Sequence record: LC727697.1
From: Pseudomonas phage sp. 30-2
DNA: 64,000 nucleotides
Direction: 5' to 3' (one strand)
Part shown: positions 3,988 through 59,379 of the stretch, in pieces
How positions within the stretch are numbered: position 1 is the stretch's first letter
Layout: every line of letters starts with the position of its first letter
Translations under genes and position numbers: made by a program
Notes under the pieces: generated by a model
Told to the model about the DNA's origin: nothing
Databases searched by the model: none
What the model saw: only the letters and a program-made list of their open reading frames with translations

Positions 3988-4017
3988 TTGCAAACATTAT
4001 AAAATTATATTATAAAT
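3988..4017 (+). promoter_or_regulatory. sigma70-like promoter candidate (TTGCAA-17-TATAAAT)
   Basis: -35 and -10 hexamers with a 17-nt spacer, inside an AT-rich intergenic region. Confidence 0.3.
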
Positions 4018-4483
4018 CTTGAATAACATATAATAAAACAGATGAAAGAATTATATTCTTTCATCATTTGAGTATGACACAGAAAACTAATTATAATGGA
4101 ATTCTTCTAAAGCACATAATAACTAATTAGTTTTATATACGGCAAGTATCAATGCATAATAATATAGGTAGTGTCGATTCAATACAAAACATAGTTTGAT
4201 GTATATTCTCTATATAATTTGGTTTGTTATTACACTATAGCGTATATAACTGTATACATTAATAATCGATTATGCAGATTAATGAAACTAAAAAATATAG
4301 ACACAAATATTATGTGTCTCAATTTATCATATTTGCTATATCCCGAGACGTATTAAATATAAAGAAAAATAACCATTTATTGACAAATGTAATTAGTAAA
4401 TGTATTTCTATAAAATATAGTTATCGTACAGATATTATTAATTATAATCTGAATATCTAAAACCGAATACCATATAATCAAAT

Positions 4484-4509
4484 AAAAACCCTACATTTGT
4501 AGGGTTTTT
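4484..4509. terminator. palindromic rho-independent terminator
   Basis: AAAAACCCTACAtttgTAGGGTTTTT: a perfect 7-bp GC-containing stem flanked by an A-tract and a T-tract, so it could act in both directions. Confidence 0.6.
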
Positions 4510-4562
4510 AATGACTTTAAGATTATAAAAGAAATAGACAAAATAGTTTTATATGAAATTGT

Positions 4563-4647
4563 TTAAATTAAAATTACAAAATGATATTGTTTAATATATT
4601 TCCATTTTAAATCACGAAATAGTATTTTAAATTAAAATCACAAAATG
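4563..4647. repeat. AT-rich direct repeats (22-mer twice, 63 bp apart)
   Basis: TTAAATTAAAATTACAAAATGA at 4563-4584 and TTAAATTAAAATCACAAAATGA at 4626-4647, plus related TTTTAAATCACGAAAT. Confidence 0.5.
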
Positions 4648-4764
4648 ACATTTAAAAATAATATTTAAAATTATATTTTATAGATTGATTTTCAAAAACA
4701 CATTTCAAAATATAAAATTGAAAATACAAATTGCAATTTTAAACAGCGAAGCAAGCTTCACTGG

Positions 4765-4818
4765 TAGTTATTAAGTATATTCGTTTTCGTAAACTACAAC
4801 TCATATACTTAATAACTA
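4765..4818. repeat. perfect 16-bp inverted repeat (stem-loop, 22-nt loop)
   Basis: TAGTTATTAAGTATAT at 4765-4780 and its exact reverse complement ATATACTTAATAACTA at 4803-4818. Confidence 0.55.
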
Positions 4819-4859
4819 ATTAAACGAATTTTATATATTAATTATTAATGCTTTTGATC

Positions 4860-5555
4860 TTATGATATTCGGGCGGAGAAGATTTCCTCCCCGTTTGGGA
4901 AGGAAATCGTAATAACAGAAACGTATGTTTCGGTATGGTACGAAGTTTAGTGTACGTTGGGAAGTGCAATCCCTGAGGCGGGCACCGATAGGTAATTCCT
5001 CATTGTAAACGCATCCTCTTACTCATATATACAGTTGCTACTAATGCTTACTGTCTCGCATCACTGCATATACTTTCAATGCCGGAATAAACTATAGCCA
5101 CACTAACAAAAACTATAGTCTATTGATGTTGGTGTTTCAACTTTCAGCCATACGGAATCTATACTGAAAGATTTATAGAAACTCTGTTTCAACCAGAGCA
5201 TCATCCTTTCCGTGTAGTAGTTGAGGCATATATTCTATGCCGTGGTTAGACCAACATCCTACACAAGTTTCGAGATTATATGCGGTTCTTACTAAGTCCT
5301 TTTAGTAAGTACAATCTCTGTGGCACCCAAAATCATAATTTAAATAACTGTTAAAACGTTAACCCGACACTATCGGAACTACAATAACAGCACGATGGGG
5401 ATAGTTTCTACTATCAATATCCAATAACGGAACAGAGCCACTTGTCTGTATATACATATAGCACTATCGTATATACATTTCTTACGCAAGCGCACAGTTT
5501 ACTAAAAGACAATACCAATGTCAAGTGCCTAATTACCACATTTTGTTACCAAACA
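4860..5555. other. ORF-free, GC-richer segment; candidate structured non-coding RNA. The full ORF-free span (no ORF >=60 aa on either strand) is 4510-5613; this call is the GC-richer core.
   Basis: Visibly higher GC than the flanks, with several local hairpins, for example CTTACTAAgtccttTTAGTAAG and CTTTCAG...CTGAAAG. No canonical tRNA features (no GTTCGAATC T-loop, no AGCTCAGT D-loop). Confidence 0.3.
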
Positions 5556-5558
5556 CAG

Positions 5559-5587
5559 TTGACTATTGAATATACATATTTTATAGT
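5559..5587 (+). promoter_or_regulatory. near-consensus sigma70-type promoter (TTGACT-17-TATAGT)
   Basis: -35 TTGACT at 5559-5564, 17-nt spacer, -10 TATAGT at 5582-5587, 26 nt upstream of the ATG at 5614. Confidence 0.5.
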
Positions 5588-5613
5588 ATGGTAAAAATTT
5601 TTACGGTATACGT

Positions 5614-6507
5614 ATGGATATTAGCTATATTAAAGCTTTAGGCGAATTAGAATATTTTATTAAATTTAGAAAAAATAAAGAAATAACAATTGCTAATAAT
5701 TCAGCTAAAGATGCACTAATTGCAGTCTGTAATTCTATTGACGTTGAATATATACCGTTCAATGCTACTGTATTGAATGTTCTTATGGAAATTAAAAGTC
5801 CAAAATTAATAAACTTTATATCAAGTAATTATTCATCTTCTATTAGTGAATATAACAGATCTATAAGTAAAGAAGATTTATATCTTGTCAGGCAATGTAT
5901 TGGAAAATTTTCAAATTCAATGTTTCCTATGAAAGTTCCTATAACATGTCATAAATTATTTTATGTTGTTTTAAAGAATTTAAAACCGAGAAAAGCATTA
6001 TCTAAAGATATAATAACGCAATTGTGTACCATACAATCTTTACCTGATTTAAACATAGTAAGACTTATTTTAAAAGAATTAAAACGACATAACGTTTTGT
6101 TGAATAAAAGAGTATTTAATTTTTTTTGTAGTAAAAGATATTCTGTTTTTGAAGAATATGTAAAATTTGTAGGGTTTGATACTATTTCTAAAAATAAACA
6201 ATATCACTGGTTTCTTTTTGAAAGGATGTCTTCGCTATTCTATATGCATAAAGCAAATGGTCAGACAATGTCTACTGATAGTTGTATTAAATTTCTTAAA
6301 AATATAGATTGGTCTTATATAGCAGGACGACATATATTGACTATATTTTCGAGGAATGTGTTGCATAGTAATTCTATAAAATATTTAGATCATATAAATC
6401 TCGATTTTTTGCCGTATTCGTACTGGAACAAACTTATAAAGATCTTCCCTCATTTGGCTGGGTCAGAACAACATGTACTAGCAAAACTTAAAGGTCCCCG
6501 AAACTAA
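5614..6507 (+). CDS. hypothetical protein (operon gene 1)
   Basis: 297-aa ORF with no recognisable motif. Its stop overlaps the next gene's ATG (TAATGA). Confidence 0.65.
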   Translation: MDISYIKALGELEYFIKFRKNKEITIANNSAKDALIAVCNSIDVEYIPFNATVLNVLMEIKSPKLINFISSNYSSSISEYNRSISKEDLYLVRQCIGKFSNSMFPMKVPITCHKLFYVVLKNLKPRKALSKDIITQLCTIQSLPDLNIVRLILKELKRHNVLLNKRVFNFFCSKRYSVFEEYVKFVGFDTISKNKQYHWFLFERMSSLFYMHKANGQTMSTDSCIKFLKNIDWSYIAGRHILTIFSRNVLHSNSIKYLDHINLDFLPYSYWNKLIKIFPHLAGSEQHVLAKLKGPRN

Positions 6508-12207: not shown

Positions 12208-12254
12208 TTATATACAGCTATGCTACAGCGCTTTAAGTAGCTAAAACTAGTCAA

Positions 12255-12285
12255 CAAAAAAGGGGCTTATAAGCCCCTTTTTTGT
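12255..12285. terminator. palindromic rho-independent terminator
   Basis: AAAAAAGGGGCTTATAAGCCCCTTTTTTG, immediately 3' of the VWA gene. Confidence 0.65.
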
Positions 12286-12297
12286 TTTAACCTACGA

Positions 12298-16299: not shown

Positions 16300-16332
16300 T
16301 CTATAATTCTGTATCCTATTAATATATAAAAT

Positions 16333-16360
16333 AAAAGGGGCTTTAAGCCCCTTTTATTTT
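16333..16360. terminator. palindromic rho-independent terminator
   Basis: AAAAGGGGCTTTAAGCCCCTTTTATTTT. Confidence 0.65.
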
Positions 16361-19640: not shown

Positions 19641-19699
19641 ATATATCTCCAGTAATAGCCATCGTATTATTTATCTGATTTTATAATTTACTGGGTATA

Positions 19700-19731
19700 T
19701 AAAAACCCTGTATAGTCTATACAGGGTTTTT
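19700..19731. terminator. palindromic rho-independent terminator
   Basis: AAAAACCCTGTATAGTCTATACAGGGTTTTT with a 10-bp perfect stem. Confidence 0.65.
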
Positions 19732-19917
19732 ATATTTAATATACATTGCGTATATACACGATATTAGATAACCTATAGGCCATAATATCCATAATATAGT
19801 CGATAGTATAAATACACATAACCAATTTTCTTTTAATACAAGATTTCTTATAGCTAAATGATGCAGTATACCTACTAAAATAGATTGGATTATTATGTAC
19901 AATACTACTAACGTCAT
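19717..19917 (-). CDS. small two-TM membrane protein (holin-like size)
   Basis: 66 aa, very hydrophobic; the 3' end overlaps the terminator. Confidence 0.35.
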   Translation of the reverse strand: MTLVVLYIIIQSILVGILHHLAIRNLVLKENWLCVFILSTILWILWPIGYLISCIYAMYIKYKNPV

Positions 19918-58677: not shown

Positions 58678-59379
58678 TTATAATTTGGCTATAATAGGTT
58701 GCTTAGATTGGTGTTGAAGTATTATATATTCGTTTAGTTTATATACTTCCCATTTTTTACCTAAAAATGCCGATAATAAAGCAACATTACTATCTACATT
58801 AGATAGTTCTATAGCACATTCATTTAGTTTTAAACTATTAAATGCTTTTTCGCCTATATACAATGGCTCAAAACTTACTGTTCTATGAGAATTAGATATG
58901 TATATTCTAGAATCATCTATGTGAGCAGAAGATATATCACTGTCAGTAAGCATAGATATTACACTTTCTGTTATTGATGCTTCTTCGTCATCTAGTAATA
59001 TTATATAATCTAATAGTCTTTCGTCATCGTATGGTAGTAATTCGTTACAAAGATATGCTTTAACTAACCAGTCTTGCTTTCCAGACACATTTTCTACATC
59101 TTTTATAATCTTGTAAAATTTTTCAAAGAAGCCTGCTTTTCTTTTTAATTCTACAAATACTAAATAATTTCCGTTTTCGTCGGGATTGGGACTTACATCG
59201 ACATCTAATACTTCTATAAAACTTTTTTCTATAAAATCGTCTAAATCAAACGCAGGGTCTTCGTCAATGGTATAGAATGCAATGACTATAACTTCTTCCT
59301 GTGTTCCAGATTTAGGCATATACTCATCCACCGAAATTATAGGTAATACAGTTCCTTTCAATGAGTGTCTAGCTAACAT
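58678..59379 (-). CDS. hypothetical acidic protein
   Basis: 233-aa ORF. Confidence 0.5.

Follow-up and report, generated by a model that had tools for sequence, protein, structure and literature searches.

What occupies the largest gap in a phage genome that is otherwise almost filled with genes? In the 64,000-nucleotide stretch of Pseudomonas phage sp. 30-2 analyzed here (sequence record LC727697.1; the whole stretch is called the window), open reading frames (ORFs) of at least 60 amino acids span 93.6% of the sequence, and the interval 4461-5613 (1,153 nt) contains none in any frame. No other gap of this kind in the window is as long, the next being 329 nt (at the window edge) and 281 nt, and the longest ORF within it is 50 amino acids. 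The initial annotation had noted about 1.1 kb lacking ORFs of 60 amino acids or more and proposed a large structured RNA there, and the gap itself holds. We consider it somewhat better than an even bet that the interval is a self-contained, minus-strand non-coding transcription unit of a Wroclawvirus jumbo phage, with an RNA that acts through its fold. That the unit exists, on this strand and within the boundaries given below, and that it is constrained and non-coding, comes either from our analyses or from published RNA sequencing (RNA-seq).

Ten GenBank records, from PA5oct-like jumbo phages of Pseudomonas aeruginosa, aligned with the first 20 kb of the window at 98.4-98.9% identity; all belong to a single genus, Wroclawvirus, of the family Arenbergviridae. 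The window is reversed in orientation relative to these records, and none of the 10 is identical to it. In PA5oct (MK797984), the non-coding RNA ncRNA004 (EST35_0353) is annotated at 246116..246734 on the plus strand of the record, which corresponds to 4859-5477 on the minus strand of the window. The two loci are orthologous, with 99.3% identity across 681 nt, the same length with no insertions or deletions (indels), the same position, and identical flanking genes, gp352 on one side and the gp355-gp359 block on the other. The element is thus already known as the ncRNA004 transcript of this sister isolate, and its existence is not new.

The PA5oct gene is annotated as a 'putative lncRNA' (long non-coding RNA) 'based on RNA-Seq data'; the signal was strand-specific and of low abundance (Lood et al. 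2020; PMC7318152 Table 1), its share of phage reads being 0.08% at 5 min, 0.03% at 15 min, and 0.02% at 25 min (PMC7318152). Detection of the transcript pertains to PA5oct itself and not to the isolate of the window. For ncRNA004, the publication lists only its coordinates, its strand, and its fractions of reads, and notes that a promoter is not known (PMC7318152); a literature search returned no later paper adding data on ncRNA004. PA5oct transcription is dependent on the RNA polymerase of its host, with promoter motifs TTGAC and TATAATA (PMC7318152).

Comparisons among genomes were made on a 20-kb alignment of the window and nine distinct relatives (10 genomes), in which variable sites were counted. 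A sigma-70-like promoter lies on the minus strand at 5524-5496, with a -35 element TTGACA (5524-5519), a 17-nt spacer, and a -10 element TAAACT (5501-5496), matching 10 of 12 consensus positions. The 5' end that RNA-seq gives for ncRNA004 (5477) is 19 nt downstream of it, and the start that it predicts is near 5489. Both hexamers were invariant in the 10 genomes, and the nearby variable sites, 5514 and 5518, fall in the spacer and vary in one genome. The first terminator-like site downstream of this promoter is a palindromic intrinsic terminator at 4510-4483, a 12-bp hairpin (UAAAAACCCUAC-loop-GUAGGGUUUUUA) in which all 24 stem positions were invariant and the four variable sites (4495-4498) all lie in the tetraloop. 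The terminator scan reported this hairpin for the minus strand alone; being symmetrical, it might act in both directions.

These elements change how the locus is to be read. The initial annotation had recognized a terminator at 4484-4509 and a strong plus-strand promoter at 5559-5587, and both were recovered, the former as the palindromic hairpin 4483-4510 and the latter as TTGACT-17-TATAGT. Reading them as a terminator followed by a promoter is the wrong way round, because the RNA lies on the minus strand: the hairpin ends the unit, and the promoter belongs to gp352, annotated on the plus strand at 5614-6507. The two promoters are divergent and stand back to back, so that 5559-5587 marks the boundary of the locus and lies outside the RNA. 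Past the terminator comes an AT-rich spacer (3998-4482) with promoter-like and terminator-like sites of its own, followed by leftward genes; the unit therefore looks self-contained rather than like a 5' leader of those genes.

The unit is under purifying selection. Across the alignment, 1.9, 1.1, and 7.0% of first, second, and third codon positions were variable, as were 9.9% of 4-fold degenerate sites (155/1,563). The GC-richer part of the unit that corresponds to ncRNA004, hereafter the core (4859-5477), had 2.9% variable sites (18/619; odds ratio against 4-fold sites 0.27, p = 4e-9), the AT-rich part beyond it, hereafter the tail (4511-4858), had 4.0% (14/348; p = 2e-4), and the whole unit (4483-5489) had 3.6% (p = 6e-10). 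Neither core nor tail contained an indel, and no indel column occurred anywhere in 4483-5613. The adjacent spacer 3998-4482, in contrast, had 15% variable sites and 33 indel columns, with pairwise identities of 88-98% versus 98.3-100% for the unit. Unconstrained non-coding DNA thus diverges in these phages, and the unit does not.

Base composition divides the gap at the same point. The core has a G+C content of 0.389, compared with 0.18-0.25 in its flanks and a window mean of 0.341, which places it at the 87th percentile of 619-nt windows. The tail, at 0.175, is at the 0.1th percentile and ranks with the window's most AT-rich DNA. The description of the whole interval as GC-elevated is therefore apt for the core relative to its flanks, not relative to the genome, and wrong for 4511-4858, the first third of the interval, which is a separate and extremely AT-rich part.

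The core is predicted to fold on its minus strand into a multi-helix domain. Its minimum free energy (MFE) was -183 kcal/mol, whereas dinucleotide-shuffled sequences reached -149 to -150 kcal/mol (z = -5.0 and -5.4); z values for the plus strand were -4.3 and -3.8. Twenty-five other 619-nt segments had z values of about -1.2 (standard deviation about 1.4), with one outlier that equals the core and holds a perfect 16-bp palindromic terminator. An inner segment of the core without its closing helix and strongest hairpin (4912-5340; 429 nt) still gave z = -4.0, with 0 of 100 shuffles as stable; the folding signal is spread over many helices. The domain is closed by a predicted long-range helix of 15 bp (5324-5338 with 4860-4875; probability 0.74) on which the MFE and centroid structures agree, and within it about 12 hairpins are predicted with probabilities above 0.9. 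The strongest core hairpin, 4881-4908, has a 12-bp stem (GAUUUCCUUCCC / GGGGAGGAAAUC) and an AAAC tetraloop (pair probability 0.99), and its sole variable site, 4896, is in the loop. A stem-loop that the initial annotation had quoted near 5288-5312 is real and lies at 5288-5309, with an 8-bp stem (CUUACUAA / UUAGUAAG), the loop AAGGAC, and a pair probability of 0.98; it was invariant in the 10 genomes. Further predicted minus-strand hairpins include 5087-5123 (13 bp), 5025-5073 (11 bp), and 5225-5241.

Substitutions in the core are suggestive, and only suggestive, of support for the minus-strand fold. Eleven of 15 transitions are A<->G on this strand, and pairing is retained, as A-U or G-U, at 9 of 13 variable sites that lie in predicted pairs (P = 0.03 relative to random placement of such mutations); this excess is absent on the plus strand of the core. 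Of the 190 pairs in the RNAalifold consensus, 10 carry a wobble-compatible single change and one is broken.

The tail also bears predicted minus-strand hairpins, among them a perfect 16-bp hairpin (4765-4780 / 4803-4818) and an 8-bp hairpin (4744-4763). Between about 4568 and 4742 it forms a long imperfect dyad made up of repeats of the 12-mer TTAAAATYACAA, some direct and some inverted. The segment 4483-4858 folded with z = -6.3, and the long dyad alone with only -2.1. The tail could belong to the RNA as its 3' part, or else be an element that acts at the DNA level.

The RNA belongs to no described family. Covariance models of Rfam 15 gave no match at gathering thresholds in the 64 kb, nothing but terminator-like chance matches in 4000-6000, and no match at E <= 10 for a 661-nt query (4840-5500) against all 4,227 families. 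ARAGORN found no tRNA and no tmRNA in the whole window; the initial annotation had recognized neither at the locus. Among known large phage RNAs, the closest in general character are ROOL, GOLLD, and HEARO, which are structured, non-coding, multi-helix RNAs of about 0.5-0.8 kb, common in phages and prophages and of unknown function; GOLLD and ROOL often adjoin tRNA genes in phage or prophage DNA. The core RNA shares their size class, phage origin, non-coding nature, and (as predicted) multi-helix form. It differs in being restricted to one genus, in its very low abundance, and in a fold without covariation support. Identity with any of the three, which had been raised at the outset, is contradicted by the covariance-model results and by the lack of nearby tRNA genes. 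The central part of the original proposal, a large RNA that is non-coding and probably structured, stands, with support from an orthologue annotated as a lncRNA, from selection, and from better-than-random folding; the strand, extent, and family analogy given there do not.

The other non-coding RNAs of PA5oct, ncRNA001-003, were likewise found by RNA-seq and lack ORFs and Rfam matches. They share no sequence similarity with ncRNA004 except a 12-nt exact word, AAGGATGATGCT, in common with ncRNA001, and paralogy was rejected. ncRNA001 and ncRNA002 lie in the terminal repeat and make up about 1-5% of phage reads, versus 0.02-0.08% for ncRNA004 (PMC7318152). The records for ncRNA003 disagree: GenBank gives 604 nt (PA5oct 103065-103668, overlapping the coding sequence (CDS) gp169), and the publication gives 103065..103368, or 304 nt (PMC7318152 Table 1). 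Its GC-rich first ~260 nt finish with a hairpin and then a T-run, and the real ncRNA003 is probably the short form.

Taken as a transcription unit, the locus would operate as follows. The sigma-70 promoter at 5524-5496 would drive a minus-strand RNA of about 0.6-1.0 kb, whose 5' ~620 nt (5477-4859, ncRNA004) would adopt a compact fold of many helices, with the long-range helix closing the domain. An AU-rich, hairpin-bearing tail would come next, and the unit would end at the intrinsic terminator 4510-4483. The folded RNA itself would be the active product, most plausibly serving a protein as its low-copy scaffold or decoy during early infection.

Several observations weigh against this account. 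As a class, promoter-like matches are not above chance (19 found versus 15.5 expected), and sequence constraint by itself cannot tell RNA function from function at the DNA level. ncRNA004 is 0.22% of the genome, so its read fractions amount to coverage of only about 0.4 to 0.1 times the genome average, and the RNA-seq 3' end lies at 4859 rather than at the terminator. Strong folding z-scores occur elsewhere in the genome, and a 300-nt z-score scan by itself fails to single out the locus; the three other sites inspected each hold a single perfect 16-19-bp palindromic terminator. The 190 RNAalifold pairs include no compensatory double change, a comparison that has no power at 99% mean column identity: no covariation is seen because all relatives are ~99% identical in the core. 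The pair-compatibility signal described above is weak and, in the AT-rich tail, mildly favors the plus strand. Finally, the depth of conservation is shallow, since homologues outside the genus were not found in the collections searched. No divergent relatives were retrieved from IMG/VR with the gp352 protein and two DNA patterns, from JGI metagenomes with a DNA pattern and the thioredoxin-like neighbor, from GTDB genomes with a DNA pattern, or from plasmids with blastn. The gp352 protein matched only the PA5oct cluster among 5.8 billion proteins, and tblastn with gp351 against GenBank phages returned the same 10 records only.

The interval might instead be a decayed pseudogene or a cluster of small-protein genes, and several GenBank records do list hypothetical proteins of 32-50 amino acids here. 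Five records annotate two to four small CDS in the core, the core G+C content of 0.39 is within the range of coding DNA, and 9 of the first 12 variable sites fall in one codon phase. The last pattern (4866-5157) was noticed post hoc and loses significance over all 18 core sites, which divide 9 / 4 / 5 among the phases (chi-square 2.3). With stops masked, six-frame translations returned no Pfam match and no meaningful PHROGs match. The log-odds score for codon usage, for which 28 window genes served as the training set, was in the best of six frames below the 5th percentile of genic windows almost throughout 4000-5610 and reached typical values from 5620, at the start of gp352. In 4 of the 10 genomes the 33-amino-acid ORF (5103-5204) is interrupted by an in-frame stop, all substitutions in the 43- and 32-amino-acid ORFs are non-synonymous, and a 62-amino-acid ORF just outside the gap (4272-4460) is open in this window and in none of the relatives. 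A search for gene-caller artefacts with the concatenated small ORFs as query returned no matches and missed the deposited ORFs too, so that it was uninformative. A neutral pseudogene would be expected to change at the 4-fold rate, and the core changes 3.4 times more slowly. The protein-family, codon-usage, and substitution-rate tests thus disfavor a decayed pseudogene, which the initial annotation had named as a possible refutation, and we regard it, or a set of small genes, as very improbable. The unit has no protein-coding capacity.

The main rival is a cis-acting, transcription-activated replication origin, in which the RNA would prime replication from, or open, the AT-rich segment 4511-4858 through an R-loop. 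The ~550-nt RNA II of ColE1, which needs its fold, serves an origin of the transcription-activated kind; T4 oriF/oriG and the T7 primary origin are others of this kind, and all of these resemble the locus in that a promoter sends a non-coding transcript into AT-rich, easily unwound DNA. Here the order is promoter, 620-nt non-coding RNA, and then the window's AT-richest stretch, kept without indels. Both exact window copies of TTAAAATYACAA lie in this AT-rich part along with an inverted one-mismatch copy, and 9 of its 75 matches at up to two mismatches fall within 226 bp. Some motif clustering is, however, expected in AT-rich DNA, the 12-mer shows no enrichment at the ncRNA003 locus of PA5oct, and the long dyad is marginal against shuffles. 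Substitutions in the AT-rich part do not favor the minus-strand RNA fold. The locus also sits at a switch in gene orientation and a local GC-skew minimum, yet a 6-kb island of plus-strand genes fully explains the switch and cumulative skew continues to fall across the rest of the window; GC skew is uninformative about an origin here because it follows gene orientation. The resemblance to known origins is one of layout, with no similarity in sequence or structure and no initiator gene adjacent, and origins of the T4 and T7 types need no 620-nt structured RNA. A promoter reading into a repeat-bearing AT-rich element is present, which is necessary for such an origin and far from sufficient. A low-abundance, early-peaking transcript would suit a primer or activator RNA (PMC7318152 Table 1), and PA5oct encodes an RNase H-like protein (PMC7318152). 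On balance, we judge an origin unlikely.

Also quite unlikely, in our assessment, is a regulatory intergenic region in which promoters, operators, and terminators insulate the opposed gene blocks, the conserved sequence is protein-binding DNA, and the RNA is a by-product. The divergent back-to-back promoters, the palindromic terminator bounding the region, and the very low transcript abundance (PMC7318152) fit such an arrangement, as does the 10-mer G[AT]ATATACAT, found five times in 64 kb against 0.9 expected and with three copies around the promoters (5448, 5469, and 5568). Yet 1 kb of indel-free sequence evolving about 3 times more slowly than 4-fold sites far exceeds what promoters and operators need. 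The spacer 3998-4482 has promoter-like and terminator-like sites too and nevertheless evolves freely, and a GC-rich, strongly folding core has no obvious role at the DNA level. A non-coding transcription unit with an RNA that acts through its fold remains our preferred reading.

Further features were observed in and around the unit. The copies of G[AT]ATATACAT lie at 5448-5457, 5469-5478, and 5568-5577 and, on the minus strand, at 4199-4208 and 58898-58907; 0 of 100 shuffles reached five copies, in a count made post hoc. Those at 5448 and 5469 are within the first 40 nt of the RNA and pair with each other, that at 5568 is in the spacer of the gp352 promoter, and the motif may be an operator. 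Inside the core, a promoter-like TTGAAA-17-TATAGT (10/12; 5112-5140) on the minus strand, the strand of the RNA, could be the source of a shorter transcript. The hexamer AGGAUG occurs three times in the 619-nt RNA (minus strand; 5254-5259, 5201-5206, and 5011-5016; 0.15 expected, P = 0.001, post hoc), which is three of the seven minus-strand copies in the window, and these are mostly predicted to be paired. RNAs of the RsmY/RsmZ type carry many unpaired GGA motifs in hairpin loops; a CsrA/RsmA sponge of this kind was not supported, as the RNA has 10 GGA versus 7.4 expected (P = 0.16), one of them in a clear hairpin loop. BLAST matches at three places per record were considered as paralogues and rejected as palindromic self-matches of the hairpin 4765-4818 and the terminator.

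The spacer 3998-4482 is hypervariable and AT-rich and consists of mosaic haplotypes, between flanks with 98-100% pairwise identity. On its minus strand, it carries a promoter-like site at 4322-4294 and terminator-like sites at 4319-4299 and 4065-4041. Elsewhere in the window, perfect 16-19-bp palindromes at 16328-16360, 19697-19735, and 12253-12286 consist of an A-run, a GC-rich core, and a T-run (e.g., AAAATAAAAGGGGCTT / AAGCCCCTTTTATTTT). These palindromes are placed at gene boundaries or close to them, have the look of bidirectional terminators, and are within or beside the strongest 300-nt folding windows (z -5.7 to -7.4).

Annotation of the locus differs among the 10 records. Five (Paride, Cassandra, Deifobo, Ettore, and PAC2) carry small 'hypothetical proteins' across the unit, at 4838-4969, 5103-5204, 5359-5457, 5442-5594, and 4685-4774; MIJ3, Callisto, and phi30-3 have nothing annotated there, and PA5oct has the non-coding RNA. 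Simple coding tests speak against the small CDS, which have the appearance of over-annotation, and several GenBank records thus appear to carry spurious small proteins across the unit.

To what had been a bare 'putative lncRNA', these results add a promoter, a terminator, an anatomy of core and tail, purifying selection, and fold statistics, and they exclude protein coding as well as membership in any Rfam family. They reveal no new principle and define a unit that lends itself to deletion, structure probing, and end-mapping. PA5oct-type phages, which include Paride, a phage that kills dormant Pseudomonas, are candidates for therapy with largely uncharacterized genomes, and large RNAs encoded by phages form a small and mostly unexplained class. 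It is possible, though doubtful, that the locus is the first example of a hitherto undescribed class of large structured phage RNAs (0.6-1 kb), unrelated to ROOL and GOLLD, or else the first RNA-primed origin in RaK2/PA5oct-like jumbo phages. If the new-class reading were true, the closed multi-helix domain would be an RNA machine or assembly with a standing like that of ROOL and GOLLD.

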